Positions 7,531 to 24,682 of a stretch of DNA of 64,000 nt are shown here, one piece after another. Numbering within the stretch: the stretch's first letter is position 1; the number at the start of each line of letters is the position of its first letter. Location: the IMG/VR virus record IMGVR_UViG_3300027836_000007, positions 42,813 through 106,812 of that record. One strand, 5' to 3'. The notes beneath the pieces are model-generated. The model did no database searches. It had not been told where the DNA came from and was given only the letters and a program-made list of their open reading frames with translations. Source of the stretch: a virus. The position numbers and the translations under genes are program-made.

Positions 7531-7961
7531 CAGATAGAATAGTATGTAGCGGAGCATTGTTCTACGCCAAGTCTACACGAAGATTTCTACTGTTACAAAA
7601 AGCTCATGGTAAACATACTGGCACGTGGGGATTAGTTGGGGGTACAAACTTACAACACGAAAATCCATGGCAAGGTCTACAGCGTGAAGTCCAAGAAGAA
7701 ATTGGATCTATGCCCGCAGTAATTAAAACAATTCCATTAGAAACATTTGTGTCTAACGATAAAATCTTTAATTTTCACACATACTTGTGTGTAATACAAG
7801 ATGAATTTATTCCTGTATTAAGCGATGAACATTGTGCGTGGGCATGGTCAACTATTGATTATGCGCCAAAGCCCTTACATCAGGGACTGCGTAACAGCTT
7901 TTCAAACAAAACAATTCGTACTAAATTACAAACTGTATTTGATATAGTGGAGTTAATCTAA
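7512..7961 (+). CDS. NUDIX hydrolase
   Basis: Complete Nudix box G-TNLQH-E-NPWQGLQ-REVQEEIG, preceded by GTWGLVGG; later L.DEH..WAW. Confidence 0.9.
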   Translation: METRALTDRIVCSGALFYAKSTRRFLLLQKAHGKHTGTWGLVGGTNLQHENPWQGLQREVQEEIGSMPAVIKTIPLETFVSNDKIFNFHTYLCVIQDEFIPVLSDEHCAWAWSTIDYAPKPLHQGLRNSFSNKTIRTKLQTVFDIVELI

Positions 7962-9117: not shown

Positions 9118-9740
9118 GATATTATATTGATACACTGTTTCCAACTTCGGTATATTATTCAGACCTTAACTGTATGGATAAACTGTTTGACTATGAACTC
9201 GATGTCTTTAAAATTTTTAAAGATATTGAAAACGATCCGCATCCGTTTGGCGAAAGTAGTTTAAGCACTTCCTTTTGGCACACTGAACACGGACACTTAT
9301 ACAACGATAGCAGATTTTCTGAGTTATCTTCAACTATACGTAAACAGGCAGTGTTATTCTGTGAAGCTTTGGGATATACTTCTTTAAAAGAAAATCAGTT
9401 AGTGTTCACAAACATGTGGGCAAACTTAATTGGACCTTACGATTATCATGCCCAACATATTCATAGTACTACTGGTAATGCTGCCATTAGTGGCGTATTT
9501 TATGTAGATTCCCCGCCTGGCGCAAAAATAAGTTTTGGTTCGCCTTATAGAGATTCCTACGAACCATTTAAGCCGTGGATTGATAATCCAGCAAATTTTT
9601 CTAAAGTATCATATGATTGTGTTCCTGGAAGATTAGTTATGTTTAAGTCTAATGTTTATCACGGTTATGATAGTCATCGTCAAGAAAAAAACAAAATAAG
9701 TATTCCATTTAATTTATCAATTATACCATATGCCGGTTGA
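9114..9740 (+). CDS. Putative Fe(II)/2OG oxygenase, TIGR02466-like
   Basis: LFPTSVY, MWAN, QHIH...ISGVFYV, GRLVMFKSNVYH, KISIPFN. Confidence 0.8.
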   Translation: MRYYIDTLFPTSVYYSDLNCMDKLFDYELDVFKIFKDIENDPHPFGESSLSTSFWHTEHGHLYNDSRFSELSSTIRKQAVLFCEALGYTSLKENQLVFTNMWANLIGPYDYHAQHIHSTTGNAAISGVFYVDSPPGAKISFGSPYRDSYEPFKPWIDNPANFSKVSYDCVPGRLVMFKSNVYHGYDSHRQEKNKISIPFNLSIIPYAG

Positions 9741-10305
9741 ATATTTTTTTCCTACTCCTATATACTATTCTTTTGTAAAGAATTTAGAATCGATTCACTG
9801 CGAAGTTGATTCTCATCTTGCGTCAGTTAAAGATATTGACTTGATAAATCCCTGGGGAGATACCGTACAAACGACATTTAAGTACAGACAGCATAATCGT
9901 GTTTTAGATAATATGCCTACTCTGCTATCAGAAATTAAAGAAAATTGTCAAAATTTTTTAGAGACAATGAACCATCAAGTTGATAGCGTTGATATCGAAC
10001 AATCGTGGTGTAATATTTCAAACAGAGATTCATTTCAACATTTTCATATACACGGAGCTATGGATTTGTCAGGTGTGTATTACCATCAGACTACAAGTAA
10101 CGACGGGGACATTGTTTTTAGAAACCCGTCGCTAGTAAATAGATTTCATAAATTAACATATAATATTAACAATTCTGTCAACTATAAACCAGAAGTTGGT
10201 AAAATTATATTATTTCCTAGTTTTTTAGAACATGCTGTATTTCATAATACTTCAGACGATAAACGAATTAGTATATCATTTAATATAAACGTAAATTTAA
10301 AATGA
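9730..10305 (+). CDS. Putative Fe(II)/2OG oxygenase, TIGR02466-like
   Basis: FFPTPIY, SWCN, QHFHIH..DLSGVYY, GKIILFPSFLEHAV, RISISFN. Confidence 0.85.
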   Translation: MPVEYFFPTPIYYSFVKNLESIHCEVDSHLASVKDIDLINPWGDTVQTTFKYRQHNRVLDNMPTLLSEIKENCQNFLETMNHQVDSVDIEQSWCNISNRDSFQHFHIHGAMDLSGVYYHQTTSNDGDIVFRNPSLVNRFHKLTYNINNSVNYKPEVGKIILFPSFLEHAVFHNTSDDKRISISFNINVNLK

Positions 10306-10922
10306 AAGAAAATTACAAAATTTTACGAAATTTCTTTAAAAAAGAAAAATGTTTAGAGATGACTACTAAACTTAGTAATTTATTACAACGAGGAATTTAT
10401 AGAAATCCAGATTCGTTATGTACTTTGAGTCCTGCGTTCTACGGAATATTTAATGACGAGATGATAGAAATTCAAAAAAATATCGAAACACTAGTAGGAG
10501 AAGAATTATATCCATGCTATTCGTATGCTAGAATATATCAAAAACACGATATCCTCCCGCCACATACTGACAGACCAAGTTGTGAAATTAGCCTTACCGT
10601 AACTTTAAATTATGAAAAACATACATGGCCAATTTGGTTGATAGATCAGGGACAAGTTACAAGTATTGAACTAGATATTGGGGATATGTTACTGTATAAA
10701 GGAACAGAAGTCATGCATTTTAGACACCCCATGCAAGGACAAGAGTTTCAATATCAAGTGTTTTTTCACTACGTTAAAAAACAAGGCAATTACGCAAATT
10801 ACAAATACGACTTGAATACAAGTTTACTATCAAACTTAGAAGCAGAAGAACAAAATTTCCCAGAATGGACTGATGATCAGCCGGACCGGATCATAAATAG
10901 AGACGATAAGGATACAAATTAA
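10302..10922 (+). CDS. Fe(II)/2OG dioxygenase-like protein (HxD...H)
   Basis: LYPCYSYARIY....LPPHTDRPSCEISLT, WPIW, GDMLLYKGTEVMHFR, QVFFHY; a family common in aquatic phages. Confidence 0.8.
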   Translation: MKENYKILRNFFKKEKCLEMTTKLSNLLQRGIYRNPDSLCTLSPAFYGIFNDEMIEIQKNIETLVGEELYPCYSYARIYQKHDILPPHTDRPSCEISLTVTLNYEKHTWPIWLIDQGQVTSIELDIGDMLLYKGTEVMHFRHPMQGQEFQYQVFFHYVKKQGNYANYKYDLNTSLLSNLEAEEQNFPEWTDDQPDRIINRDDKDTN

Positions 10923-10923
10923 T

Positions 10924-11529
10924 ATGAATACCAAACCATCTGAAATATTTTATTTAGAAGATGTACTAAGACAAAATACGTTTGACAACATTGTTGCCGA
11001 ATTAAAAAAACCAATCTGGCAATACGGTAGAGTTACTAATCCCGATCTGTGGGACGAGGATACAACAGTATTTTGGCAAGCCGATTTAAGTCTAAATACC
11101 CTAGTAGGGGAACAAGCATTTTATGAAATTATTGATAAATTGAACCAAATTGACTCTACTACACAGAATTACCAGTTTAAACTTTATAGTGCTATTGCTG
11201 GCGGTAAAACATTCGGGTTAGATGGCGGAATTCATACTGATAAAGACGTAGAATTTAACAACATGGGCGACGGATTCATGACCTTTTGTTTTTTCCCAAA
11301 CAGAGAATGGAATCCAGAATGGGGCGGCGAGTTTCAGTTCTTTGATCAGGAAGGAAATATAATTGCAACATACTATCCTAAGCCAAACACATGTTTAGTA
11401 TTTGATAGTAACATTCCGCACAGAGGGCTTGCACCTAATAGAGATTGTAAAAAGCTCAGGATGTACCTTTCTTTCAAAACATTTGTGAGTAAAAAATGGT
11501 ACTTGGACCAAAATAACAATGATTCTTAA
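10924..11529 (+). CDS. Prolyl-hydroxylase-like Fe(II)/2OG dioxygenase
   Basis: GGIHTD, WNPEWGGEFQF, PKPN.CLVFDSNIPHRGLAP, LRMYLSFK. Confidence 0.85.
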   Translation: MNTKPSEIFYLEDVLRQNTFDNIVAELKKPIWQYGRVTNPDLWDEDTTVFWQADLSLNTLVGEQAFYEIIDKLNQIDSTTQNYQFKLYSAIAGGKTFGLDGGIHTDKDVEFNNMGDGFMTFCFFPNREWNPEWGGEFQFFDQEGNIIATYYPKPNTCLVFDSNIPHRGLAPNRDCKKLRMYLSFKTFVSKKWYLDQNNNDS

Positions 11530-12238
11530 TTTATTTTCATTACCGATATATAAAGTTAATATTTTAGATCAAATTGATACTGGTAATCTTGAAGAAAAGT
11601 TACAGTCTGAATTTGCTCGATCTTCTTCTGACCCAAGTGGTCTAGAAAAAAATGGCGGAGTAAGCACTTACGATACTAATTGTAATTTACATTTGGAAGA
11701 ATATACAAAAACAATATCAAATATTGTGTTACAACATGCTAGATTATATTGGAAAGTATTAGATGTTGATCCTAGATTAGAACCTAGGATCGATCAGTGC
11801 TGGTCAAATATACATTATAATAAAAGCATTACTATAGAACATTCTCATAGTTTATATCCTATTGTTGCTACCCTATATGTAAAATCTGAAAAACATTCAG
11901 GAGATTTAGTAATGATAAATCCAATGGAGTATGGGCTAACTCATATTCCGTACGGAGTTGCTATTGAAAATAAAACAGAAACTTCTATTAAAGTTTCGAC
12001 GGGAGATTTAGTATTGTTTCCAGGGTGGATTAGACATAAGACAACAGAAAATCTTTCAGATCAATCTAGAATTGTATTAAGTTTTAATATTCATTACCAA
12101 GGAACATATCTTGCGTCAAACAGTGACTATCTTGTGGATCATACGGTACATACTAGCGAAATTGATCAGTTACAGAATAAAATTCTAAAATTAGAATTTA
12201 TCATAGATCATATGCAACGGAGTTTAAAAAATGATTAA
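11519..12238 (+). CDS. Putative Fe(II)/2OG oxygenase, TIGR02466-like, with C-terminal coiled-coil tail
   Basis: CWSN, EHSH, GDLVLFPGWIRHKT, RIVLSFN; tail EIDQLQNKILKLE. Confidence 0.85.
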   Translation: MILNLFSLPIYKVNILDQIDTGNLEEKLQSEFARSSSDPSGLEKNGGVSTYDTNCNLHLEEYTKTISNIVLQHARLYWKVLDVDPRLEPRIDQCWSNIHYNKSITIEHSHSLYPIVATLYVKSEKHSGDLVMINPMEYGLTHIPYGVAIENKTETSIKVSTGDLVLFPGWIRHKTTENLSDQSRIVLSFNIHYQGTYLASNSDYLVDHTVHTSEIDQLQNKILKLEFIIDHMQRSLKND

Positions 12239-12455
12239 AAAACCAAGAAGAATGCATTTAAATGAAAAAATACTACGTGTTCCTACGAAACTTTATGAAG
12301 AGCGACTAGCAATTTGTAAAACTTGTTACGCCTTCGATGCCGCTGGAGAAACAGGAGGTACTTGTAAAATTATAAATGTGCCTGTTACAGCTAAATGCGC
12401 TTTAAAATCTGGTTCTTGTCCGATGGGATTCTGGTCGTCTAATTATGACAATTAA
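12231..12455 (+). CDS. Small Cys-rich, probably metal-binding protein (DUF6171-like)
   Basis: ERLAICKTC...TCKI...KC...SCPMGFW; overlaps both neighbouring genes. Confidence 0.65.
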   Translation: MIKKPRRMHLNEKILRVPTKLYEERLAICKTCYAFDAAGETGGTCKIINVPVTAKCALKSGSCPMGFWSSNYDN

Positions 12456-13146
12456 AATTGGTTACTGTCCTTGGTTTGAAAAAAATAATCGAACTACAAA
12501 TACTGCTCTTAACTATTATGGCTGGGCAGATTTGGCTTACTTTGATTTAGAACCGCTAGATACTTGGGAAAATTCAACAGCAAGGTATCATCAGTGTCCT
12601 GCGTTTGTAAAATATGTAAAAAATACATTTGTATTAAGAAATACAGTAGATTTAGTATTGCACTGGGACAAATATAACCAAGTAGTAAGCACAAATTTAC
12701 CCAAGGATGCGGCCGATGCGTTGGTAAGAACTCACTGGGGAGATTTTGATACTGACAAAGATCGCCCAATTGTTGCAATTAGTAATAGTTTTGTGTTTGT
12801 TGCAGATCAGCCAGTCTATGTCGAATTCTTACCTCCGTTTAATCATATTGATCATTCGTGGAGATTAATTCCCGGAATGTTTAATATCTTTTCGTGGCAA
12901 CGGCCTGTAGTAACTACTATTGAAATGTTAACAGACGAAGTTATTCTAAAACGTGGTCAGCCCATGGCTTATATTAGATTTAGATCTGACAACCCAAGTG
13001 ATAAGTTTGTTTTGAAAAAAATAGAACGTACTGAACAACTAGAACATGCTGTAAACAGTTGTCTCACATTAAAACAATATATGCCAAAATTAAGTTGGAA
13101 AATACATAACGCTATTAATAAGTTAAGGCCTAAAAAATGGCTGTGA
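12445..13146 (+). CDS. Hypothetical protein (QCP-motif, beta-rich; paralogue of 18326..19087)
   Basis: HQCPAF....NTFVL, IPGMFNI..W.RP, LKRGQPMAYIRF; translationally coupled within the cassette. Confidence 0.6.
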   Translation: MTIKIGYCPWFEKNNRTTNTALNYYGWADLAYFDLEPLDTWENSTARYHQCPAFVKYVKNTFVLRNTVDLVLHWDKYNQVVSTNLPKDAADALVRTHWGDFDTDKDRPIVAISNSFVFVADQPVYVEFLPPFNHIDHSWRLIPGMFNIFSWQRPVVTTIEMLTDEVILKRGQPMAYIRFRSDNPSDKFVLKKIERTEQLEHAVNSCLTLKQYMPKLSWKIHNAINKLRPKKWL

Positions 13147-14606
13147 AGAAAGTAGCGATTCTAGGCGGGGGCACTTCTGGCTGGCTAACAGCAATATTTT
13201 TTAAAAAAGTTTGGCCGGCACTAGAAATTACAGTAATTGAAGATCCAAAACATCCTCCAATTATAGCAGGAGAAAGTTGCACAGCACCCTTTGTCGACTT
13301 GTTAGATTTTTTAAATATTGACGTAAACGACTGGATTAAAAAAGTAGATGCTTTTCCTAAATTAGGGGGAAAGTTTGAAGGCTGGGGCCCCAATAATTCT
13401 GATTTTGTACAACCGTTATTTTCTTCTTATAAGAATCGGTGGGATTATAAAAATCCAGAGTTTGGCAAAGATAATGTTCTACTCAAAGGATTACTTGCTA
13501 CAGGTTTACCCTTACATAAGATTACGGTGTCTGGTCATTTATTAGAAAATAATATAACACCTTTTACTTCTACCGGATTCGTAACTAGACCAATGTATCA
13601 TTTTGACAGCAGAAAAAATGCAGAATATTTTAAAAATATCGGCAAATCATTAAACATTAATCTAATTTTATCAAAATATCAGTCTTGTAAAATATCCGAT
13701 AATGGAATTGAAAGTTTAACTTTAGAAGATCAAGAAGTTTGTGCAGATTTTTATATCGATTGTAGTGGATTTAATCAGTTGTTATTAAAAAAAGCATTAG
13801 GAGTTGAATTTAAAAATTTTTCTAAATATTTCCCAGCAACTAGTGTAATAGCTTGGTGGGACGAATCAGATTTAAAACCATATTCAAGAATGATTGCCAT
13901 GGATTATGGCTGGCGATTTAATATAGACTTACGGTCTAGAAGTGGAAACGGTTATGTCTACGACGGGTCTTTAATTTCATCAGAACAAGCACAACAAGAA
14001 GTTGAAAGAAAACTTAATAAATCCGTTAATTTAGTTGCCAAAGCATCTTGGCAAGCTGAAATGGCTATTGAACCTTGGCAGAAAAATGTAATAGCAATAG
14101 GACTTAGTTCAGGATTTTTAGAACCGTTAGGATCAGGTGGTCATACTATGATTGCCTTGACTTTACAACTACTTTCAGAATTTTGGAACCCAGAAAAAGA
14201 AACACACGGCCATGCAACTACGCTATTAAATTCTCGATATAAAGACATTGTTGATGATACTGTAGATTTTATTTCATTACACTATCGAAATAACAGAAGT
14301 GATACTGAATTTTGGAGGAAACATTTATCGGAAGAAACTGTTCCTCAATCGTTAAAACTAAAAATTGAACAACTTAAATCTGGAAACTTTTACGATATTG
14401 GGGTTGCATACTCTTTAGAAAATTATGCCGTAGTATTACAAGCATACGAGTTAATTGATAAATCATTGTTAGCTAATATTATTCGTTACAAAAATGAAAA
14501 GTATTTAGATCAATGTATAGAAGAATATAACTTACTAAACAATCAAGCAAAACTAATAATCAAAGACTGTATTCCTACAACAGAATGGAAAAAATTATAT
14601 GATTAA
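13137..14606 (+). CDS. Tryptophan-halogenase (PrnA)-family flavoprotein, non-canonical active site
   Basis: GGGTSG FAD motif, AGES, AFPKLGGKF, YHFD, FYIDCSGF. WxWxIP appears as WRFNID and FxEPLEStG as FLEPLGSGG. Confidence 0.85.
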   Translation: MAVKKVAILGGGTSGWLTAIFFKKVWPALEITVIEDPKHPPIIAGESCTAPFVDLLDFLNIDVNDWIKKVDAFPKLGGKFEGWGPNNSDFVQPLFSSYKNRWDYKNPEFGKDNVLLKGLLATGLPLHKITVSGHLLENNITPFTSTGFVTRPMYHFDSRKNAEYFKNIGKSLNINLILSKYQSCKISDNGIESLTLEDQEVCADFYIDCSGFNQLLLKKALGVEFKNFSKYFPATSVIAWWDESDLKPYSRMIAMDYGWRFNIDLRSRSGNGYVYDGSLISSEQAQQEVERKLNKSVNLVAKASWQAEMAIEPWQKNVIAIGLSSGFLEPLGSGGHTMIALTLQLLSEFWNPEKETHGHATTLLNSRYKDIVDDTVDFISLHYRNNRSDTEFWRKHLSEETVPQSLKLKIEQLKSGNFYDIGVAYSLENYAVVLQAYELIDKSLLANIIRYKNEKYLDQCIEEYNLLNNQAKLIIKDCIPTTEWKKLYD

Positions 14607-16083
14607 CAATTTAATAATTCTCGGCGGCGGAACTAGTGGACTAGTTAACGCAATTATATTAAAGTCTATCTACCAAAAGCTCAACATTACTATAGTAAAG
14701 TCCTCTGATGTTGGCATCATCGGCGTAGGTGAAGGTTCAACTGAACACTGGGCTCGTTTTATGCAAGTTGCAGGAATCTCCGTACACGAACTGTTAAAAG
14801 AAACAGATGCAACGTTTAAATCTGGTATAAAATTTATCAATTGGAATGGAGACGATGACTATTATTTCCATAGTGTTCACAGTCAATTTTTAACAGAAAG
14901 TTACAATGGTTCTAATAATATATATTTAAACATGATTGCAGGAGGAAAAACTCACCACGATATTATTCCTGATAACATTCATAAGTCAGTTCATTACGAA
15001 CCTTTAGAAGGAACAGTCAATCAATTTCATTTCAATACCATGAAACTTAATGATTATCTCATTAAGCAATGTTTAGTTAGAGATATAAAAATTATTGACG
15101 ATACAGTAGACGATGTTATTTTAGATGACACGGGCCATGTTTCAAAACTAATAGGCAAGTTAGGTGAATATTCGGCAGATTTTTTTATTGATTGTAGCGG
15201 TTTTAAACGTGTTATATCTTCTAAATTAGGTGCAAAGTGGGTAGACTGTTCAGACTATCTACCAATGAATTCAGCATTTGCATTCCCTACAGAAAAAATG
15301 GAAGATATTCCTTCACACACCCTTAGCACTGCAATGAGTTCAGGATGGATGTGGCGAATACCAACTAATGATAGATTTGGAAATGGTTATGTATATTGTG
15401 ATAAATTTATTACAGACGAACAAGCTATTGCAGAAGCACAATCTGTATTTCAAAAGCCTATCAACATTGCAAAGACATTTAAATTCACTGCTGGATATGT
15501 AGATAAATTTTGGATTAAAAATTGTGTGGCTGTTGGGCTGGCTGGGAGTTTTGTTGAACCGTTAGAAGCCAGTAGTATAGGAACTTCTATTCAACAGGCA
15601 TTTGGCATCGCCAACTCTTTAATAAATTACGAGGACGGTGATCAATCATTGATTGACAAATACAATTATGATTTTGAAAGCGTGGCTAAAAATATTATTG
15701 ATTTTGTTCAACTACATTATATAACTAAAAGAGAAGATTCTGCTTTTTGGAAAAATTGTAAAAATTTAAAATTAACTGAATTTAATCAACAAACATTAGA
15801 GCATTTTAAAAAATACGGTCCTAATACAACTTTCTTTAGTAAGCCATATATGCTTTTTAGGGAAGTAAATTGGTTATTAGTCATGCACGGCTTAAAAATG
15901 CTCGACATAGAAAGTATAAAGAATATGATGTCACAACAAAATGACGATATATTGTTTTCAACAAACGAACTTCAAAAAGATTTTAGTAAATTTGTTGAAA
16001 AACAAACTATGATTACTCATAGAGAATGTTTAGAAATTTTAAAATCTAGAAACTCCGTTCATGTTATCAGTATGGAACAGTGA
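14599..16083 (+). CDS. Tryptophan-halogenase (PrnA)-family flavin-dependent enzyme
   Basis: GGGTSG, GVGEGS, ATFKSGIKF (catalytic Lys position), FFIDCSGF, GWMWRIP, FVEPLEASS. Confidence 0.9.
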   Translation: MINNLIILGGGTSGLVNAIILKSIYQKLNITIVKSSDVGIIGVGEGSTEHWARFMQVAGISVHELLKETDATFKSGIKFINWNGDDDYYFHSVHSQFLTESYNGSNNIYLNMIAGGKTHHDIIPDNIHKSVHYEPLEGTVNQFHFNTMKLNDYLIKQCLVRDIKIIDDTVDDVILDDTGHVSKLIGKLGEYSADFFIDCSGFKRVISSKLGAKWVDCSDYLPMNSAFAFPTEKMEDIPSHTLSTAMSSGWMWRIPTNDRFGNGYVYCDKFITDEQAIAEAQSVFQKPINIAKTFKFTAGYVDKFWIKNCVAVGLAGSFVEPLEASSIGTSIQQAFGIANSLINYEDGDQSLIDKYNYDFESVAKNIIDFVQLHYITKREDSAFWKNCKNLKLTEFNQQTLEHFKKYGPNTTFFSKPYMLFREVNWLLVMHGLKMLDIESIKNMMSQQNDDILFSTNELQKDFSKFVEKQTMITHRECLEILKSRNSVHVISMEQ

Positions 16084-16715
16084 TGGCTATAGAGCAAAAG
16101 TCTTTTCCAAATTACGGGTATTCAATGTCAGTTTTGCCCGACGACGTGTTATGTATAATTAAAGAAGAAATTAATAATTTACAAACTAACAGTAAAATTT
16201 ATAAAAATCTAGCAGGGCATTTAGAATCGCAACATTATCTAACAGAATCTCGAAACACATTATCTCCAATTATTTTAGAAATGGCGGCTGAGTATCTGCT
16301 TTCTTGGAATTTTAAAAACGAAGTACTTAGAAATAATCCAAAGGCAGATGTTATCTCTTTTAAATTAGATGATATTTGGGTAAATTTACAGAAAAAGACA
16401 GAGTATAATCCGTTACACGACCATTCTGGAGTTTTTAGTTTTGTTGCTTGGATCAACATACCCTACAATTTAGAAACAGAAATGAAACTGCCGAATGTCG
16501 AATCTTCAAATAACCCGTTAGCAACAACTTTTAACTTTGTCTATACTAATGTGTTTGGAGAGATTATTGCCTTGCCATTTTTTGCTGAGAAAAAACACGA
16601 AGGAACTATCATTTTTTTCCCGGCAAAGTTAAAACATTTAGTTTATCCATTTTTAACTTCAGAAGAGCATAGAATAACTATTTCAGGAAACGTGTCCCTT
16701 AACACCGCTGTGTGA
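16080..16715 (+). CDS. Putative Fe(II)/2OG oxygenase (HxH...H)
   Basis: WVNLQKKTEYNPLHDHSGVFSFV.W, GTIIFFPAKLKHLVYPF, RITISGN. Confidence 0.85.
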   Translation: MMAIEQKSFPNYGYSMSVLPDDVLCIIKEEINNLQTNSKIYKNLAGHLESQHYLTESRNTLSPIILEMAAEYLLSWNFKNEVLRNNPKADVISFKLDDIWVNLQKKTEYNPLHDHSGVFSFVAWINIPYNLETEMKLPNVESSNNPLATTFNFVYTNVFGEIIALPFFAEKKHEGTIIFFPAKLKHLVYPFLTSEEHRITISGNVSLNTAV

Positions 16716-16743
16716 TAATTACATATATCACATTAGGAGACAT

Positions 16744-18333
16744 ATGAGTAACGTGAATAAAATAGTGATAGTCGGTGGTGGTAGTGCTGGTTGGATGAGC
16801 GCAGCCACTCTGATTAAACATTTTCCAAATAAAGAAATTTATGTTATAGAAAGCCCCAATGTTCCCACTGTCGGTGTTGGTGAAAGCACTATTGGGCAAA
16901 TAAACGAATGGCTGTACGATCTTGATATCAAGGATGATGACTGGATGAAACAATGTGATGCCAGTTATAAGATGAGCATCAAGTTTACTAATTTCTATAA
17001 AGAAGATGCGGGTGCCTTTCACTATCCATTTGGTGTTCCAGTAGTTGAAGCCAAATTTTTTCCGTACGGAGTCAATGACTGGTATGTGAGGAAATCTGTT
17101 CATCCTGAGATACCGGTTTCTAATTTTGCGGACACATATTTCCCCGCAATGACATTAATTAATAAAAATAAAATTACCGACAATAAAAACAATGAAATAC
17201 CAGGCTGGAACTTTGATCGAGATGTGGCCTATCATTTTGATGCGGCAAAGTTCGGTGCTTGGCTGAGAGATTCGTATGCTGTTCCTAAAGGGGTAACACA
17301 TATACCTGCTGAAGTAACATCTATACAAACAAACAGCGAAGGTGTTGAACATCTTGTATTAGATAATGGCGATAAAGTTACTGCTGATTTATTTTTAGAC
17401 TGCACAGGATTTAAATCTATTATTTTAGATAAGACGATGAAGGTTCCTTTTGAAAGTTATAGTGATTTACTACCCAATAACAGTGCATGGGCTACACGTA
17501 TCCCATTTCAAGATAAAGAAAAAGAATTAGAACCGTTTACTAACTGTACTGCTATAGGTAATGGTTGGGTTTGGAATATTCCGCTATGGAGTCGAATTGG
17601 AACTGGATATGTTTACAGTGACGAATATATTTCAGACCAAGATGCATTAGAAGAATTTAAAGAATATTTACAAAAAGAAAGAGAAGTGCCAATTCCAAAA
17701 TCTGTCATTGACTCTTTAGAATTTAAAAATATTAAAATGCGTGTAGGAATACACAAAGAAATTTATCACAAAAATGTCTGTGGTATTGGGTTAGCTGCAG
17801 GGTTCATTGAACCATTAGAATCTAATGGTTTGTATACTGTTCACGAATTTTTATTAAAATTAGTTGCAATACTTAATAGAAATTCTGTAAGTCAATTTGA
17901 TAAAACTGCCTTTAATGAAGGATGTAGAGGAGATTTTAGAGCTTTTGCTGAATTCGTAGCCTTACACTATGCTATGAGTCACAGGGACCAAACTCCTTAT
18001 TGGCAGGCTGTGCAACATCGTGTATTTCCAAAAACTATGCCGTTGGGCGTATATGCTACATCTGGAATTGACAGTATAATACATAGAAAGTTTGTAAGCC
18101 ATTTATATGATATGGACATGGGCGGCACGTTGATGATAGCAACTGGCATGAACTTGTTTCCGTTTGACAGTAGTCTACTAAAAAGAACGCTGTTTAGAAA
18201 TTCTAATGCAGAATATCTGACCTACTTACAAGATGTTTGTTGGCATAAATGGGATGCTGACTTAGATCAAAGAAATGAATTTGCTGATTCTGCTCCAACA
18301 CTATATCAATATTTAAAAAGCAAATATGATTAA
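16744..18333 (+). CDS. Tryptophan-halogenase (PrnA)-family flavin-dependent halogenase, canonical motifs
   Basis: GGGSAG, GVGEST, ASYKMSIKF, AYHFDA, LFLDCTGF, GWVWNIP, FIEPLESNG; has its own SD AGGAG. Confidence 0.92.
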   Translation: MSNVNKIVIVGGGSAGWMSAATLIKHFPNKEIYVIESPNVPTVGVGESTIGQINEWLYDLDIKDDDWMKQCDASYKMSIKFTNFYKEDAGAFHYPFGVPVVEAKFFPYGVNDWYVRKSVHPEIPVSNFADTYFPAMTLINKNKITDNKNNEIPGWNFDRDVAYHFDAAKFGAWLRDSYAVPKGVTHIPAEVTSIQTNSEGVEHLVLDNGDKVTADLFLDCTGFKSIILDKTMKVPFESYSDLLPNNSAWATRIPFQDKEKELEPFTNCTAIGNGWVWNIPLWSRIGTGYVYSDEYISDQDALEEFKEYLQKEREVPIPKSVIDSLEFKNIKMRVGIHKEIYHKNVCGIGLAAGFIEPLESNGLYTVHEFLLKLVAILNRNSVSQFDKTAFNEGCRGDFRAFAEFVALHYAMSHRDQTPYWQAVQHRVFPKTMPLGVYATSGIDSIIHRKFVSHLYDMDMGGTLMIATGMNLFPFDSSLLKRTLFRNSNAEYLTYLQDVCWHKWDADLDQRNEFADSAPTLYQYLKSKYD

Positions 18334-19087
18334 CTTTATTAAAGAGCTGTTTTCTAAAAAGAAAGAAATTATTACTTTTAGTTGCAAGGACTGGGCTATA
18401 CGAAAATATTCACCGGTTGAATTAGGGGAGCAAAAATTACCTCAGGAATATTTAGATTTACCTGTGGGGAAAATTTGCCCGTTTGAAAGAAAAAATCAAA
18501 GTTATCAACTTTCAGCAAGACAATGTCCGTCGATTAATTCTTTTTTAAAGTATGGATATGTTATCTCTGCTTGGTGCGATATAGAAATTAGTTTTGAAGA
18601 CGATCATGTGTACATCAAATATAGTAATTTAGATTATAATCACGATGTACACACAGAAAATCAATATCAAAAAATTATAGGTGATCAATTTGATGTTAGA
18701 CTAATTATAAAAATAAACAACCCGTGGCATATAAAAACCTTAGATGGATATAGTTGTTTCTGGATGCCAATTTACTATACAAATAAGAATTATCAAGCTA
18801 TTCCTGCTATAGTGGATACTGATTTGATGTTAAATGACTTACCAATTAATCTAGCATTTTTTGAAAAAAAATATACTTTGATAAAAATGGGAGAACCCTT
18901 AGTTAAAGTTATTCCTTTTCGTCGAGAGCCAATTGACGCTGTAAGCAAAAAATACGACTCTGCTGATGAAAATAGATTTTTAAATATCCTGGGATTAAAT
19001 GGACTTAGTAGATATAATTGGCGAGGGTTTATTACTGCAAAAAATAAGTTTAGTTTGGATAAAAAAGACTTAGACATTGAATCATGA
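18326..19087 (+). CDS. Hypothetical protein (DUF6065-like; paralogue of 12445..13146)
   Basis: RQCPSI..FLKYGYVI.AWCD, KINNPWHIKT..GYSC, IPAIVDTD, IKMGEPLVKVIPFRRE. Confidence 0.65.
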   Translation: MINFIKELFSKKKEIITFSCKDWAIRKYSPVELGEQKLPQEYLDLPVGKICPFERKNQSYQLSARQCPSINSFLKYGYVISAWCDIEISFEDDHVYIKYSNLDYNHDVHTENQYQKIIGDQFDVRLIIKINNPWHIKTLDGYSCFWMPIYYTNKNYQAIPAIVDTDLMLNDLPINLAFFEKKYTLIKMGEPLVKVIPFRREPIDAVSKKYDSADENRFLNILGLNGLSRYNWRGFITAKNKFSLDKKDLDIES

Positions 19088-19671
19088 TCAACTTGGAACC
19101 TATCAATCTTTGGCCTAGTTTAATACATAAATCTGTTTACCCTGGAGATTTGACAAATATTTCTAGTAAATTTTTGACACTCTTTAATGAAAATTCAAAT
19201 CATAATTTAGAAAAAAACGGTGGCAAGTCTACATACAGTACTGTAAACAACCTAATTACCGACCCAGTGTGCGGCAAACTAAAAGAATGGTTAATTCAAC
19301 AAAGTAAACTAGTTTGGGATTTATCTAATTTTGTTGATCGTCCAAGACGTGTGCATAGAAGTTGGGTAAACTTACATCCTCCAGGGGCATGGACTGATGA
19401 ACACGACCATGCAATGTGTCATCAAAACATTGTTGTTTATTTAAAACAACCTGAATTAGGTGGTAACATAATGTTTAAAGATCCTCTACAATACACATTT
19501 TCTGGATTTCCAAAAAATAATAAAAATGACTGGACAACATTGGAAGTTAAACAGAACGATGTAGTTTTTTTTCCTGGATTTTTACATCATAAAACAGAAA
19601 TTAACTCTAGTCAAGAAGATAGAATGGTTATGACTCTAACTATATCCGTGGATATATTTGCTGATGAATAA
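19084..19671 (+). CDS. Putative Fe(II)/2OG oxygenase, TIGR02466-like
   Basis: SWVN, EHDH, GGNIMFKDP, DVVFFPGFLHHKT, RMVMT; shares LEKNGG.STY with 11519..12238. Confidence 0.85.
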   Translation: MINLEPINLWPSLIHKSVYPGDLTNISSKFLTLFNENSNHNLEKNGGKSTYSTVNNLITDPVCGKLKEWLIQQSKLVWDLSNFVDRPRRVHRSWVNLHPPGAWTDEHDHAMCHQNIVVYLKQPELGGNIMFKDPLQYTFSGFPKNNKNDWTTLEVKQNDVVFFPGFLHHKTEINSSQEDRMVMTLTISVDIFADE

Positions 19672-20254
19672 TTATAGAAACGTAACATTATTAGGAAAAA
19701 TTCCACTACTCACTAGTCAGTGGTCAGAATTCGATAACTATAAAAAAGACATCGTTGATCTTTGTTTAAAACTTGAAGTTCCTAATACGATAGAATCTAA
19801 TATAGCAGTTCATGCGAAATCAGATTTGTGGGAATCGTCTTTCGATTTTTTAGAAAAACAAACAGATATTAATAATTTAAAATTATGGCTGATACAGGAA
19901 TCTACTGAATTAATCAATAATTTTAACAATAGTAATTACAGAACAGTTATAACAGAAAGTTGGGCACATGTTACTAGGGCAAGTGGATATCATAAACCTC
20001 ATTATCACTGTGGCTCAACTTGGTCCGGCATTTTTTATGTTGCTGGTGAAACTAATAAAGGAGGAAGTAATAATTGGTACTTGCCTTATTACGTAGAAAG
20101 ACAGCCTGGGTTAGAATTTGCAGATAGTATGTACACTGTTAATTGCCAGCCCGGAACATTAGTGTTATTTCCCAGTATGCTACTTCATGATGCTGATGTG
20201 TATCAAGGAACCCAACCGAGGATAGTTATTTCTTTTAATTCCATATGCTTATAA
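19658..20254 (+). CDS. Putative Fe(II)/2OG oxygenase, TIGR02466-like
   Basis: ESWAH, HKPHYH..STWSGIFYV, GTLVLFPSMLLH, RIVISFN. Confidence 0.85.
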   Translation: MLMNNYRNVTLLGKIPLLTSQWSEFDNYKKDIVDLCLKLEVPNTIESNIAVHAKSDLWESSFDFLEKQTDINNLKLWLIQESTELINNFNNSNYRTVITESWAHVTRASGYHKPHYHCGSTWSGIFYVAGETNKGGSNNWYLPYYVERQPGLEFADSMYTVNCQPGTLVLFPSMLLHDADVYQGTQPRIVISFNSICL

Positions 20255-20841
20255 TAGACGACGTTATTGTGTTAGACGATATTGTTCCTAAACAATATCA
20301 AGATTTGATAGAAACTCAAATGTTAGGTGACAATATACATTGGCACTACATGAGAGACATAACCTTTGATGTTGAAAAACTCAATGAGTTAAAGGTTACT
20401 GTTGCTAAACCTGCATTTGCTCACAAATTTTACGACAGGACTGCTGGGATTATTAGCCCTGGATATGGATTAGTATTGCCCATTGTGTACAATGCTTGCG
20501 AAAAAATTAAGTTTCATGTAAACGAAGTTATTGCCGCAAGGAGTTTTTTAACTATTCCCCTTCCAAATCTAGAAAGCGCCCTAGATCATCCGCATGTTGA
20601 TAGAGAAGTTTCTCACATAGTAGTTCTATATTATGTTACAGATTCTGACGGAGATACTGTGATATATGACAAAACTTTTAGAGATGTCTCTCCTGATCAT
20701 CTTAGAAAAGAAGATTTACAAATTTTTAAAAGTGTTACGCCTAAAAAGGGAAGAGCCATCGTATTTGATGGCTCTCGATATCACACTAGCACTAGGCCAA
20801 CTACTGGACACAGATGTGTAGTTAACTTTGGTGTATGGTAA
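20245..20841 (+). CDS. Fe(II)/2OG dioxygenase-like protein (HxD...H)
   Basis: HPHVD, VVLYYV.DSDGDTV, PKKGRAIVFDG..YHTS, RCVVNF. Confidence 0.85.
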   Translation: MLIIDDVIVLDDIVPKQYQDLIETQMLGDNIHWHYMRDITFDVEKLNELKVTVAKPAFAHKFYDRTAGIISPGYGLVLPIVYNACEKIKFHVNEVIAARSFLTIPLPNLESALDHPHVDREVSHIVVLYYVTDSDGDTVIYDKTFRDVSPDHLRKEDLQIFKSVTPKKGRAIVFDGSRYHTSTRPTTGHRCVVNFGVW

Positions 20842-21237
20842 TTATGTTGGTGGAAGGTAATTTCCTGGATCGCCTTCTGCACCTGGCTTAGGCACCGCAC
20901 TTTTAACTGTTTCAATCGACTTAAACCATTGGCCAGTAGGCGATATAGTTCCTGTATCGCGAATCTCTTTAAACAACATATCTAATTGATCTCCCATTGG
21001 AGGATACGCTCTCATTCGTTGCATATAAAATGGCTCAACTGGATTTCCAAATTCGTCTCTAGAATGGGAGTGTGGGTCAGAAAATTCGCCAGTTTCCTCA
21101 CTATATCCCCAGCCAGTTTCACAGTTATCAGGGCAATCAACCCAGAAGAAATCTGTAGTTGTTTCAAAATCAGTTTCATCTGGTCCTAGTATCTGAGTTA
21201 CTTGCCAAAATCTTTTATCAATTAATGCTCTTTTCAT
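20842..21237 (-). CDS. Tail-fibre assembly/chaperone-like protein
   Basis: WVDCPD...GW.Y followed by QRMRAYPPMGDQLDML...W...I..VK..VPKP, a motif typical of genes downstream of phage fibres. Start moved from 21348 to MKRAL at 21237 (SD AGGA; removes overlap with the upstream gene). Confidence 0.6.
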   Translation of the reverse strand: MKRALIDKRFWQVTQILGPDETDFETTTDFFWVDCPDNCETGWGYSEETGEFSDPHSHSRDEFGNPVEPFYMQRMRAYPPMGDQLDMLFKEIRDTGTISPTGQWFKSIETVKSAVPKPGAEGDPGNYLPPT

Positions 21238-21253
21238 GTTCCTAATTCCTATT

Positions 21254-22201
21254 TTATTTATACTCGTAGACGATACAAATTCCGCCCTTGCCATTTCTGC
21301 CGCCTTGGCTGTTGTGTGCCGGGTTAGTTGCTGTGCCGCCTGATCCAAAGGCTGCTACATCTTGCGGCTGCTGACCTCCATGTCCACTAGGTTGGCCGCC
21401 TCCAAAGAAACTTATTCCGCCATGTCCTGGAGCACCGTTACCGTTATACTGATCTTGATTATTATGGCCACCACCTCCACCACCCCATACATTTAGTTGC
21501 CCAGAAGATCCAAGGCCACCCAGGCCACCGTTATGTTGTATGTGAGCATTGGCGCCACCACCACCGGTAGCCGCTACAAATGCACCAAAACTAGTAGTGC
21601 CTCCGCCTGGGCTAAATCCAAAGTATACTCCGCCAGCGCCACCACCACCAACAGTAACCGTAACTGTAGTAATAGCTGTAGCATCTATTACTCTTTCAGC
21701 ATAACCGCCTGCGCCACCTGATTCAGCATACGCACGGCCGCCTCCTCCTCCTCCGCATACAATCACATGTAGTAATCTTACATCAGGACCAGATTTAGTA
21801 TAAGTACCAGGGCCTGTAAAAGTATAGACATTTTTTATTTTTTCGCCAGCTTTCAAAATGTTTTCTCGAGCTGCATAATTGGTCATTAATGTACCGTTGG
21901 CGGCTGTACTTTCAGGATCATCTGTTACATTTGAAATAGTTGTTCCGTTGACAACAATTGCTGTTCCCGTTGCTGCCAAAGGCGTTACGGTACCTACAGA
22001 CGTTACACTCATAGAACCGCCACTTATAGCAACGTTGTTTGAAGCCTGTTTTCCTAGTGTATCAATCACTTTGGTAACAACTGCTGAGGCATTTCCTTGA
22101 AACGCTTTACCGTCTTGTACATTAATTGCAAATTCTCCTGCTATTAAAGAACCAGGTACTTGCGTTGTTGTGTTAGAATTTTTAAATTTATATTTTGGCA
22201 T
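21254..22201 (-). CDS. Short tail fibre/adhesin with C-terminal glycine-rich domain (paralogue C)
   Basis: N-terminal GEFAIN..DGK module; C-terminal VIVCGGGGGG...GGAGGYAE...VTVGGGG...GGTTSFG...GICIVYEYK. Confidence 0.75.
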   Translation of the reverse strand: MPKYKFKNSNTTTQVPGSLIAGEFAINVQDGKAFQGNASAVVTKVIDTLGKQASNNVAISGGSMSVTSVGTVTPLAATGTAIVVNGTTISNVTDDPESTAANGTLMTNYAARENILKAGEKIKNVYTFTGPGTYTKSGPDVRLLHVIVCGGGGGGRAYAESGGAGGYAERVIDATAITTVTVTVGGGGAGGVYFGFSPGGGTTSFGAFVAATGGGGANAHIQHNGGLGGLGSSGQLNVWGGGGGGHNNQDQYNGNGAPGHGGISFFGGGQPSGHGGQQPQDVAAFGSGGTATNPAHNSQGGRNGKGGICIVYEYK

Positions 22202-22207
22202 AATTTT

Positions 22208-23713
22208 TTACCTTAGTTCATATACAATACAGATACCACCACGACCAACACTGCCTTCGCCACCTGACCCGCCGACTGATCCAGTACCGCCTGCGCCCGG
22301 TGCGCCATGGTCTGCTGGTCGAGAAGCACTATGATGACTATTTCTAGATCCTCCAAAGAAGCTGGAGCCTCCGCGACCCACAGCTGAATTACTAGGATTG
22401 TTTACACCATTATTGTGACCCATGCCGCCGCCGCCGTATGCATTTACATCGCCGTTTGAGCCGATACCGCCATGCCCTCCTATGTGACTACCGTGCTGGT
22501 TAGCACCATAACCGCCGCTAGCACTTAGATACGAGCCAAAACTAGTAGTGCCTCCATTGGCGCTAACTCCAAAATAGTTGCCACCGGCACCGCCGGTGCT
22601 TGAAACTGTCACAGTAATTGTTGAAATGCTGGCCGCGTCAAATGTTCTCTCAGCATAACCTCCAGAGCCGCCACTTTCTCCATAGCCGCGGCCACCGCCG
22701 CCGGCGCCAACACAGATAACTCTAATTCTTCTAACATCGGTGCCTGATTTGGTATAAGTAGAACTTGCGGTATATGTAAAAACATTCTTTACTAATCCTC
22801 GGGTGTTACTATCAATATATGTTTTTATTGCATTTTGTGTTGCAATGGTACTGGAAGAGGCATCAAGAGCTGTAGAAGTTGATACACTGGTAAATGCTTT
22901 ATTGCCGCCTCTAATCCACAGTCTTACATGAGAAAGATATACTGCTTCGTCCGCTGGGGCTTGTTCTACGTTGGAAAGATGTCTAGCTGAAAATGTTGAT
23001 GGAGTATGTGCATACCATCCGGTATCAATAATAAAATACCCATTGCCGCCAAGACCTTCTGGAGCACGACCTACGCCGCCCCATGGCGCTGTTGAATACC
23101 ATCTATTTCCGTGCCAATTTAAAGTTGTTCCTGAAGCAGTTGTAGCTATTACTGGATAGCTTGACGCACTTTTAGTAAAAGTAGTTCTCGAAACTTCTGC
23201 GCCACCGTTGTCTGTAGTGAATAACTGGTTAGTTTCGCCGTCAACGCTGTCTACTAAATGCCAAAATACTTGATATCGTACTTCAGTGTGCGCGGGGATT
23301 CCTGTTAGGTTCAATGTGTAACTTCTAGGCCCTGCGGTCCAGCCGTGAGCACTAATGTTGCCCAAGCCGCCAAATTCAGTCATAGTAGTTGTGGTTGCAT
23401 CGTTCCATACTGCTGTATTTCCTGCGGCATTGCCACCTTCATCATACCAAATTCTTTCTGCCGGTAATCCTAAAGATGTAAGATTCGCATTTGTTGTAGA
23501 AACTGTTGTTGCATCAATTGTTCCGCCAGTGATTGTTATAGCATTTGAATCTTGTCTTCCTAATGAATCACCAATTAATACCGGATTAAGTGAGGCATTT
23601 CCCATCCAAAGTTTAGAATCTGCAAGGTTTACAGCAAGTTCGCCTTGCTCTAAACTTCCAGCTGCCGGAACCGCCGAAGCAGTGGTTGATGTTTTAATTT
23701 TTATTTTAGGCAT
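22208..23713 (-). CDS. Tail fibre/adhesin with inserted lectin-like domain and C-terminal glycine-rich domain (paralogue B)
   Basis: Same N-terminal GELAVN..D.K module and Gly-rich C-domain as its neighbours, plus a roughly 190-aa Trp/His-rich central insert. Confidence 0.75.
   Translation of the reverse strand: MPKIKIKTSTTASAVPAAGSLEQGELAVNLADSKLWMGNASLNPVLIGDSLGRQDSNAITITGGTIDATTVSTTNANLTSLGLPAERIWYDEGGNAAGNTAVWNDATTTTMTEFGGLGNISAHGWTAGPRSYTLNLTGIPAHTEVRYQVFWHLVDSVDGETNQLFTTDNGGAEVSRTTFTKSASSYPVIATTASGTTLNWHGNRWYSTAPWGGVGRAPEGLGGNGYFIIDTGWYAHTPSTFSARHLSNVEQAPADEAVYLSHVRLWIRGGNKAFTSVSTSTALDASSSTIATQNAIKTYIDSNTRGLVKNVFTYTASSTYTKSGTDVRRIRVICVGAGGGGRGYGESGGSGGYAERTFDAASISTITVTVSSTGGAGGNYFGVSANGGTTSFGSYLSASGGYGANQHGSHIGGHGGIGSNGDVNAYGGGGMGHNNGVNNPSNSAVGRGGSSFFGGSRNSHHSASRPADHGAPGAGGTGSVGGSGGEGSVGRGGICIVYELR
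22674..22725. repeat. 52-bp exact direct repeat, copy 1 (copy 2 at 24198..24249)
   Basis: ctttctccatagccgcggccaccgccgccggcgccaacacagataactctaa is identical in two fibre paralogues. Confidence 0.95.
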
Positions 23714-23719
23714 AATATT

Positions 23720-24682
23720 TTATTTGTACTCGTAAACTACGCAAACGCCGCCTTGACCATCAAATCCTCTGTCATAGTTGTTGGCGCCGTTATTATAAAA
23801 ATTTGATCCTGTGCCGCCTGCGCCAAACGCACTGTTATCCTGCGATCTAGCAGTGTAGTGTACTCCTGGAGTAGACCCACCAAAGAAACTGTTTCCGCCA
23901 TGCCCTGGATTGTGATGACTTGATGTGTGGCAGTTAATGTGGCCACGGCCGCCGCCGCCGTGAAAGTTCAAATTACCGCCTGAGCCTATGCCGCCTTGGC
24001 CGCCGGTGTGGTCTTGATTGTTATTTGCGCCGGCACCGCCACTTGCTGAACAAAATCCGCCAAAACTAGTAGTCCCGCCGCTAGGGCTATAACCATAATA
24101 CACGCCACCGCCGCCACCGGTGCTTGAAACTGTCACAGTAACAGTAGTTATACTAGTGGCGTCTATCCATCTTTCTGTAAAGCCGCCGGCGCCGCCGCTT
24201 TCTCCATAGCCGCGGCCACCGCCGCCGGCGCCAACACAGATAACTCTAAGTTGTCTTACATCAGTGCCTGATTTAGTATAAGTGTTACTGCTGGTATATG
24301 TAAAAATATTCTTTAAAGATCCTCTTCCTAAATTAACATTTCCCTGCACAGCAAGTCTTGTTGGTAATGTAGTATTGCTAGAACCTAATCCGTCGGCGTT
24401 TGCAACAGCATTGATTGTGGCTCCACTGTTTAGTTGCAAGTTAGTTGTAGAAATCTGTGCAGGCACTGTTGCCCCAATACTAGTACCATTAATTGTTCCG
24501 CCAGTAATTGCCACAGAATTAGCAGCATTCCTTGCCGCAGTTCCAACTATTTTTACAACGCCGCCCGCAGTTCCAACAAACATATTACCATCGCCGGTGT
24601 TCATAGCAAGCTCGCCTACGTCTAAGCTGGCAGGTACTGCTCCTGGTGTAGTACTACTTTTTAGTTTAATTCTTAATGGCAT
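23720..24682 (-). CDS. Short tail fibre/adhesin with C-terminal glycine-rich domain (paralogue A)
   Basis: GELAMNTGDG N-module; RVICVGAGGGGRGYGESGG...GVCVVYEYK C-domain. Confidence 0.75.
   Translation of the reverse strand: MPLRIKLKSSTTPGAVPASLDVGELAMNTGDGNMFVGTAGGVVKIVGTAARNAANSVAITGGTINGTSIGATVPAQISTTNLQLNSGATINAVANADGLGSSNTTLPTRLAVQGNVNLGRGSLKNIFTYTSSNTYTKSGTDVRQLRVICVGAGGGGRGYGESGGAGGFTERWIDATSITTVTVTVSSTGGGGGVYYGYSPSGGTTSFGGFCSASGGAGANNNQDHTGGQGGIGSGGNLNFHGGGGRGHINCHTSSHHNPGHGGNSFFGGSTPGVHYTARSQDNSAFGAGGTGSNFYNNGANNYDRGFDGQGGVCVVYEYK
24198..24249. repeat. 52-bp exact direct repeat, copy 2
   Basis: Identical to 22674..22725. Confidence 0.95.

Follow-up and report, generated by a model that had tools for sequence, protein, structure and literature searches.

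The T-even adhesin gp38 comprises a gp37-docking domain, a beta-helix and a three-layer polyglycine-II sandwich, and metal-binding histidines are established in the T4 gp37 fibre tip. In the fibre protein gp24 of cyanophage Pam3, six loops with two Gly motifs each run along the fibre axis, and their distal tips were proposed as the receptor site; the small gene after the fibre gene encodes the chaperone gp25, and the superposition with gp38 given in the available part of the paper covers only 52 residues (PMC9608196). For the neighbourhood of halogenase and dioxygenase genes in Syn9 and Syn10, the available part of Iyer et al. 2010 proposes the synthesis of secondary metabolites, i.e. small molecules, and does not mention fibre genes; it also describes bacterial neighbourhoods of a halogenase and a Syn9-gp52-like dioxygenase that contain TonB-type receptors, with a halogenated siderophore-like compound as the predicted product (PMC2938197). 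Control of the 2OG level has been proposed as the role of phage 2OG oxygenases (PMC3037559). The literature examined names no natural substrate for VirX1 and other cyanophage halogenases, and for the arrays of tandem 2OG oxygenases in marine and freshwater phages it offers no more than conjecture as to their role.

The window analysed here is a stretch of 64,000 nucleotides from an uncultured freshwater jumbo myovirus. psbA was not found in the 106.8-kb record, and its gp15-like protein is closest to those of the jumbo phages Phosso, PA5oct and Atu_ph07; the guess of a T4-like cyanophage was therefore dropped. All segments quoted in the original prediction were found in three ORFs on the minus strand, paralogues A (23720..24682, 320 aa), B (22208..23713, 501 aa) and C (21254..22201, 315 aa), and the range given there, 21254-24300, spans C, B and the Gly-rich domain of A. 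The common scaffold it described for the three Gly-rich domains was borne out by the alignment, in which B and C are 54% and 52% identical to A and the glycine motifs are invariant. A consists of a conserved N-terminal docking segment, a linker and a TNF-like plus Gly-rich tip domain; B has the same N-terminus and tip domain plus an insert of about 190 aa. The TNF-like plus polyglycine-II (TG) domains occupy residues 122-320 of A (23723..24319, by alignment mapped to coordinates), 307-501 of B (22211..22795, by alignment and fold model) and 121-315 of C (21257..21841, by alignment, fold match and conservation), all on the minus strand. The three copies are adjacent in 68 of 78 loci. At the joints between paralogues in related contigs, short sides of 20-26 nt were seen.

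Against the PF21722 (Gly_rich_2) profile, C and B scored 36.3 and 31.4 bits, above the cut-off of 24.3, and A stayed just below it at 23.9 bits, yet is 52-54% identical to the other two. Neither the N-terminal 80 residues of the three paralogues nor the chaperone candidate described below gave a meaningful Pfam match. The structures of C and B were predicted as monomers. The model of C reached a pLDDT of 82 and a pTM of 0.69, with values of 59-65 in the loop blocks 251-260, 271-280 and 291-300, and that of B a pLDDT of 70. In fold comparison, C matched the Pam3 fibre gp24 (7ypx_A) with Z 19.5 and an rmsd of 2.6 over 179 aa at 28% identity, and the in-virion Pam3 chain 7yfw_a with Z 18.7; the tip domain of B matched 7ypx_A with Z 17.8. 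Lower scores were found for C with the Bxb1 tail tip (PDB 9D93 chain Q; Z 14.8, 26% identity) and with the TG domains of ALK/LTK (7NX3, 7LS0, 7NX1; Z 8.2-9.8, 17-20% identity). By this comparison, C and B each have a TNF-like jelly roll into which glycine-rich hairpins are interleaved. Visual inspection of the translation of C and of the conservation column table gave about 12 Gly motifs, which were used to label the regions in the comparison of variability below. A phmmer and profile search of the PDB sequences gave no true match, so that Pam3 and Bxb1 emerged from fold comparison only. Neither Megablast nor tblastn retrieved any match to the region from the phage collection; since homologues do exist in Syn9, the low-complexity filter is the probable cause. 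On this evidence, all three paralogues are predicted fibre-tip proteins that carry a TNF-like plus polyglycine-II domain, and Pam3 gp24 is their nearest solved relative. The idea of an adhesin whose polyglycine-II strands display loops thus survives in the Pam3 gp24 fold, in which the loops are brought together at one end of the domain. T-even gp38 as the model for it is not supported: the closest type is that of Pam3, Bxb1 and ALK, and gp38 of Salmonella phage S16 (6F45) was absent from the match lists (Foldseek and VIA) of three fold searches.

The insert of B (residues 83-269; 22907..23467, minus strand) was predicted with a pLDDT of mostly 80-92. At fold level only, it is a beta-sandwich like those of carbohydrate-binding modules (CBM61 2xom, Z 10.2; CBM27, Z 9.9) and phage receptor-binding domains (phi812, Pa193 and Kp7 fibre domains, Z 8.8-9.7). 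If anything, this modelled likeness suggests glycans; nothing points to the TonB-dependent receptors that had been put forward.

The amino acid composition was determined for the non-Gly residues in the C-terminal half of the three domains and compared to that of the other structural proteins of the window. His accounts for 21 of 186 residues (11.3% versus 0.6%, a 17-fold enrichment with a binomial p of 1e-19) and Asn for 17.7% versus 7.6% (2.3-fold, p 5e-6). The predicted richness in His, Asn, Gln and Tyr therefore holds for the first two and marginally for Gln (2-fold, p 0.02), and it fails for Tyr (2.7% versus 4.7%). Asp is not enriched. A, B and C contain HH, HxxH and wider-spaced His and no HxH motif.

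Conservation was evaluated over 211 halogenase-linked domains, with the residue numbering of paralogue C used throughout. H223 is kept in 209, H246 in 205 and H274 in 176 of them, and the three occur together in 171. Y193 is found in 210, N237 in 198 and N218 in 189 domains. Position 158 is His in 121 and Tyr in 73, and 114 domains carry four His. At position 274, Arg replaces His in 25 domains; it occurs only alongside Tyr158 (25/25, about five origins), and this covariation suggests that the two positions are coupled. The core residues are Y158, Y193, N218, H223, N237, H246, N248 and H274 in the TG domain of C, Y159, Y195, N220, H225, N239, H248 and H275 in that of A, and Y344, Y380, N405, H410, N424, H433 and H461 in that of B.

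Several of the His and Asn quoted as part of hypervariable loops are thus invariant family positions. Across 30 orthologues of C, variability is lower in the loops than in the N-terminal linker, with entropies of 0.0-0.77 for the loops overall and 0.0-0.18 for loops 217-224 and 246-248, compared to 1.66 for the linker. For a lake strain diverged by 0.6%, the 16 differences listed out of 21 are 11 synonymous and five conservative non-synonymous changes, none of which alters a His or Asn; at the sequence level, the comparison indicates purifying selection. The inter-glycine segments do differ between paralogues in three excursions, at C 249-258 (10-20% identity between paralogues), 270-285 (25-38%) and 290-299 (10-40%), and nowhere beyond these, and each excursion is conserved inside its orthologue group. 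This corrects the picture of the tips, which are conserved and paralogue-specific rather than hypervariable.

A cassette on the plus strand (7961..20841) converges on the fibre genes. It holds 10 genes with Pfam 2OG-Fe(II) oxygenase matches, three Pfam-less ORFs and three Trp-halogenase-like genes (families PF13759, PF13640 and PF04820), and its GC content is 32-34% compared to 41-46% for the fibre genes. Between the two, directly after C, lies a small gene (20842..21237, minus strand, 131 aa from an internal ATG) with 31.6% identity to Syn9 gp40 (E 8e-11), which likewise sits between the tip genes and the halogenases of Syn9. It falls into PHROG 1787, of unknown function, and by analogy with Pam3 gp25 its position and size make it a candidate fibre chaperone. 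A link to His hydroxylation via ribosomal-type enzymes was considered and rejected, as blastp detected no homologue of Syn9 gp49 (MINA/NO66 clade) in the cassette.

In 71 of 73 informative viral loci a Trp-halogenase-like gene is located at most 3.3 kb from the fibre-tip genes (median 637 bp), on the same strand in 61 and inverted in 10; neither of the two exceptions has the complete set of His. The linkage persists across the inversion and down to about 33% identity. Seven unlinked bacterial relatives and the viral domain L052 lack every core His and have a His content of 0-1.1%. The His content is 0-1.9% over unlinked domains, including those of bacteria and Bxb1 gp33, which has no His at all, and 0.88% in 16 bacterial PF21722 domains. 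The halogenase-linked domains group in a single clade, to which L079 and L052 are successive outgroups. As judged from these alignments, the His signature is confined to this single clade, the one inherited with a flavin-dependent halogenase and usually with 2OG oxygenases. A single clade means a single evolutionary event, and the association of His and halogenase could therefore reflect shared ancestry rather than function. Syn9 gp38 and gp39, homologues of A, B and C, carry the same signature.

We consider that A, B and C are most probably three paralogous tail-fibre tip (receptor-binding) proteins with TG tips, a conserved cap and paralogue-specific excursions. In each protein, the conserved docking segment would be followed by a variable linker, expanded in B by the carbohydrate-binding-like beta-sandwich, and the TNF-like jelly roll would send about six glycine-rich hairpins (about 12 polyglycine-II strands) to the distal end, as in Pam3 gp24. 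The cap would comprise H223, H246, H274, His or Tyr at 158, Tyr193 and Asn218, Asn237 and Asn248, located 1-3 residues from the ends of the glycine strands and at similar depth, 7-9 residues from the beta-sandwich. Judging from the Pam3 topology and the residue spacing, these residues may lie distally in one layer. Through the three excursions, each paralogue probably presents a receptor surface of its own. We infer both receptor binding and any chemistry at the cap. For the cap itself, a purely structural, hydrogen-bonded role or a conserved receptor contact is a serious possibility, if somewhat short of probable.

The cap residues (Tyr193, His/Tyr158, the His triad and Asn) may instead be natural substrates, or a docking point, of the halogenase and oxygenases inherited with them, in which case the tip would be halogenated and/or hydroxylated in its mature form; we regard this as a tentative reading. 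Flavin-dependent halogenases with protein or peptide substrates (MibH, SrpI, ChlH type) modify Trp or another electron-rich aromatic residue and are encoded alongside the substrate. In the loci studied here the enzyme lies alongside in 71 of 73, Tyr193 is all but invariant and position 158 is His or Tyr; the loops have no conserved Trp, the only Trp-rich column falling in the beta-sandwich part, and this counts against the reading. Hypohalous species react with His and Tyr, and FIH, MINA53 and NO66 are hydroxylases of Asn or His. The retention of the linkage over inversion and divergence, and the restriction of the His signature to the linked clade, argue for a modified cap, with the reservation that the association has a single origin. 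To our knowledge, no such post-translational halogenation or hydroxylation is known for any phage adhesin. If the tips were modified in this way before assembly, the cap would be the long-sought target of the viral halogenases and would represent a new post-translational chemistry for phage adhesins. In this specific form, with the cap as natural target or metal-assisted docking site of VirX1-type halogenases and tandem 2OG oxygenases, the proposal is doubtful, and the published views differ from it, favouring secondary-metabolite synthesis in the available part of one source (PMC2938197) or 2OG level control (PMC3037559). The question now concerns specific residues: the cap consists of three to four His together with an invariant Tyr and three Asn, and within this fibre-tip domain family, whose structure is known, the clade that bears the cap is the clade inherited with the halogenase. 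Since Syn9 gp38 and gp39 share the signature, the idea is testable on a cultured phage.

An intrinsic metal site of the Zn, Fe, Ni or Cu type, independent of the neighbouring enzymes, which would clamp the ends of the glycine hairpins or bridge an anionic receptor group, appears rather unlikely. Consistent with such a site are the three to four invariant His, which four different hairpins contribute at roughly equal depth, the many four-His domains, the apparent coupling of Arg274 to Tyr158 and the precedent of metal-binding His in other fibre tips, e.g. T4 gp37. The same-layer geometry is deduced from spacing and the Pam3 topology, however, and hydrogen bonds of His and Asn could cap the strands as well. 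As far as checked, the solved relatives have no such site: Bxb1 gp33 lacks His, and the available part of the Pam3 paper mentions no metal (PMC9608196).

It is improbable that the three proteins, like T4 gp38, serve to assemble the giant fibre proteins encoded upstream and are missing from the mature particle. PHROG 863, which matches A (E 8e-40), and the Syn9 annotation do carry the label 'tail fiber assembly', but this label comes from gp38. Pam3 gp24, structurally the nearest relative, is present in the intact-virion structure (7yfw_a), the Bxb1 homologue belongs to the tail tip, and a separate small chaperone-like gene comes after the tip genes. Least likely is the mechanism originally envisaged, in which Fe/2OG hydroxylases would convert loop His, Asn or Asp to beta-hydroxy forms that chelate Fe(III) and mimic a ferric siderophore at a TonB-dependent receptor: the enrichment in His and Asn is real, the oxygenase cassette adjoins the fibre genes and the bacterial TonB-type neighbourhoods provide a contextual echo only (available part of PMC2938197), but no HxH motif like that of the 'Ferrojan horse' tip of T4 gp37 is present, the His positions belong to a conserved scaffold rather than to variable ligand-display loops, Asp is not enriched, the cassette has no gp49 homologue and the insert of B suggests glycan binding.

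Compared to the described systems, the tips resemble Pam3 gp24 (7YPX, 7YFW; Wei et al. 2022) in their TNF-like jelly roll with Gly-rich hairpins to the distal tip and in the small gene that follows the fibre gene. They differ in the absence of the long helical shaft of the Pam3 N-terminus and in the presence of three tandem paralogues instead of one fibre, and the His/Tyr/Asn cap and the obligatory halogenase linkage are not mentioned for Pam3 in the available part of the paper (PMC9608196). The tail-tip protein of mycobacteriophage Bxb1 (9D93 chain Q; gp33 by its length of 267 aa) shares the TG fold at a phage tail tip; Bxb1, however, is a siphovirus, its gp33 is free of His and no halogenase is annotated in its 18-kb tail region. 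The extracellular TG domain of ALK/LTK has the same interleaved architecture in an animal receptor kinase, which binds cytokines laterally. With T-even gp38, after which the cyanophage homologues are named in databases, the principle of polyglycine-II strands that hold non-Gly loops at the distal fibre end is shared, whereas here the middle domain is TNF-like and the loops are conserved. The T4 gp37 needle tip is likewise a fibre tip bearing His, but it has HxH iron sites and a different fold, and any metal site in the tips described here would be formed by a single subunit. Finally, Syn9 shows the same gene order, with gp38/gp39 followed by gp40, two halogenases and oxygenases; compared to Syn9/Syn10, the cassette described here is inverted and larger, with three halogenases and 13 oxygenase-type ORFs, and is set in a jumbo phage backbone.

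The tail-fibre tip genes A (23720-24682, 320 aa), B (22208-23713, 501 aa) and C (21254-22201, 315 aa) are three paralogous minus-strand ORFs arranged in tandem downstream of two giant fibre-like genes (3761 and 3094 aa). A low-GC plus-strand cassette, convergent with A-B-C, contains ten genes with Pfam 2OG-Fe(II) oxygenase matches, three Trp-halogenase-like genes and three Pfam-less ORFs. The small gene after C was listed at 20842-21348 (168 aa), so that 95 nt were shared with the end of C. Since its homology to Syn9 gp40 and PHROG 1787 opens at Met38, it probably starts at 21237 (131 aa), 17 nt past C, and its position makes it a candidate fibre chaperone. The IMG/VR record holding the window is 106.8 kb long with a CheckV completeness of 29%, consistent with jumbo phages of 287-490 kb as best cultured relatives; the nearest relatives of the gp15-like tail-sheath stabiliser are found in the jumbo phages Phosso, PA5oct and Atu_ph07. 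At 6070-7961 a NUDIX hydrolase follows this stabiliser, a pair also annotated in PA5oct-like Pseudomonas jumbo phages. Near-identical DNA, covering the whole or part of the stretch, is present in freshwater and lake metagenomes (20 runs among those listed, from 11 studies). Of the words sampled from the A-B-C region (21254-24700), two freshwater metatranscriptome runs contained 99%, which is consistent with in situ expression or with carry-over of phage DNA.

All the segments quoted in the original prediction, which described hypervariable loops rich in His, Asn, Gln and Tyr between polyglycine motifs, were found. Composition was counted on the non-Gly residues in the C-terminal half of the three TG domains (TNF-like plus polyglycine-II), with the window's other structural proteins as reference. 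His made up 11.3% of the tip domains versus 0.6% of the reference (17-fold, p 1e-19) and Asn 17.7% versus 7.6% (2.3-fold), so that the enrichment of these two residues is real and far above chance. Gln was marginally enriched; Tyr was not, and neither was Asp in the same count.

The loops are not hypervariable. Across 75 homologues that are 44-96% identical, H223 and H246 (C numbering) were invariant, N248 was kept in 74, N237 in 72, H274 in 63, with Arg in the others, and H296 in 60. Mean column entropy over 30 orthologues of C was 0.18 for loop 217-224, 0.00 for 246-248 and 0.45-0.77 for the three longer excursions, all below the 1.66 of the N-terminal linker. A, B and C diverged strongly only in the excursions 249-258, 270-285 and 290-299 (10-40% identity). 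A natural strain, represented by contigs from two lake studies, differed at 21 of 3447 bases. Eleven of the 16 differences listed were synonymous and five were conservative replacements (S483A, V480A, S441T and R305Q in B, R143K in A), none of these 16 changing a His or Asn. Entropy, paralogue identity and strain differences together indicate that purifying selection acts on the tips, which are paralogue-specific. The paralogues share direct DNA repeats (21254-24700) that fall on the conserved scaffold, one of 266 nt (B versus A, 79% identical) and shorter ones common to A, B and C; six strain differences cluster in a 32-nt stretch of B (22267-22298) next to one such repeat.

Profiles built from the tip domains, halogenases and oxygenases of the window were used to scan 78 viral and 13 bacterial-genome related loci, and yielded 211 domains at most 6 kb from a halogenase, hereafter linked domains. 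These had a mean His content of 4.8% and retained H223 (209/211), H246 (205/211), H274 (176/211, with Arg in 25), Tyr193 (210/211), Asn218 (189/211) and Asn237 (198/211); at position 158, 121 domains had His and 73 had Tyr. All three core His were present in 171 and four His in 114. Domains with no halogenase nearby looked different. Those of viral locus L052 and of seven bacterial relatives contained 0-1.1% His and no core His, and no Trp-halogenase gene was found anywhere in three of the genomes of these bacterial relatives. Sixteen bacterial PF21722 domains averaged 0.88% His, and Bxb1 gp33 contained none. Two bacterial genomes (G152 and G074, loci L097-L112) carry very long open frames (18,106 and 29,206 aa) in which many Gly_rich_2 domains stand in tandem; the domains, with eight and three matches, are His-poor (0.4-1.9%). 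In 71 of the 73 informative viral loci a halogenase lay no more than 3.3 kb from the tip genes (median 637 bp); 61 of these loci had it on the same strand, and in the other 10, the window's kin among them, it was inverted. The two loci without a close halogenase were L052, with no His, and L079, with two of the three. In the tree, L079 and then L052 were successive outgroups. Because the linked domains form one clade, the association of signature and halogenase arose once and was kept without loss; it does not represent several independent events.

Of the 78 viral loci (L003-L080), 68 had exactly three tip genes in tandem, and at all deep nodes of the tree (supports 0.97-1.0) the copies grouped by phage lineage and not by the position of the gene, which points to concerted evolution by gene conversion or to repeated triplication. 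As three co-evolving TNF-like subunits form a fixed set, a heterotrimer, as in C1q, is a possibility.

The conserved His lie at the glycine runs: H223 two residues ahead of 225-229, H246 immediately after 240-245 and H274 after 267-273, and Y158 and Y193 fall midway along hairpins one and two. In the AlphaFold model of C (pLDDT 82, based on 75 homologues), all five are 7-9 residues away from the flanking beta-strands, so that at the polyglycine-II rise they would form a single transverse layer, a cap, at the distal end. Arg274 occurred only with Tyr158 (25/25 domains, about five origins) and His158 always with a non-Arg residue at 274; this exclusive pairing hints that positions 158 and 274 touch. 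The cap is a conserved, clade-specific cluster of metal-ligand-type and halogenation- or hydroxylation-prone residues, predicted to lie at the receptor-binding end. A purely structural role, or a conserved receptor contact, is the reading we tentatively favour. The receptor-binding domain with its cap is co-inherited with the halogenase and oxygenase enzymes, and the cap might be their target, which we regard as possible though doubtful. For such phage arrays PMC2938197 proposes synthesis of secondary metabolites, and PMC3037559 alternatively an adjustment of 2OG levels; a full-text literature search found no paper tying halogenases to tail fibres. An intrinsic metal site, for which the ligand-type side chains would be suited, is rather unlikely. 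The chain originally predicted, from hydroxylation through Fe(III) chelation and siderophore mimicry to a TonB receptor, has a single echo in its favour, the bacterial halogenase-dioxygenase neighbourhoods with TonB-type receptors for which a halogenated siderophore-like small molecule was predicted (Iyer et al. 2010, PMC2938197). It is highly improbable and found no support; against it stand that A, B and C have no HxH motif, Asp is not enriched, the cassette has no blastp homologue of the Syn9 MINA/NO66-clade protein gp49 and B has a CBM-like insert.

This insert (residues 83-269, window 22907-23467) is a well-predicted beta-sandwich, kept in 31 orthologues of ~500 aa. Its model was nearest to the carbohydrate-binding modules CBM61 (Z 10.2) and CBM27 (Z 9.9), and also resembled receptor-binding domains of phages phi812, Pa193 and Kp7.

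Pfam PF21722 (Gly_rich_2), with A slightly under the cut-off, and PHROG 863 match all three tips. Residues 121-315 of C aligned with the cyanophage Pam3 fibre gp24 at Z 19.5 (rmsd 2.6 Å, 179 residues, 28% identity) and with gp24 of the intact virion at Z 18.7, followed by the Bxb1 tail tip (Z 14.8) and the ALK/LTK TG domains (Z 8.2-9.8); the B model gave the same match (Z 17.8). The predicted fold is a TNF-like jelly roll, which glycine-rich hairpins leave along the fibre axis; for Pam3, PMC9608196 proposes the distal ends of the loops as the receptor site. As S16 gp38 was absent from the fold searches with the C model, the likeness to gp38 adhesins is one of way of working, and membership is not supported. 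The present analysis contributes a signature defined at the level of single residues, shows that it is confined to the linked clade, refutes hypervariability and adds the CBM-like insert in B. In cultured Syn9 the tip genes and halogenases are arranged alike: gp38/gp39 (tip homologues with the His signature) are followed by gp40, two halogenases and then oxygenases, and there the His/Tyr cap offers a precise, testable target. A, B and C are a variant of a known fibre-tip fold, set apart by the conserved His/Tyr cap.
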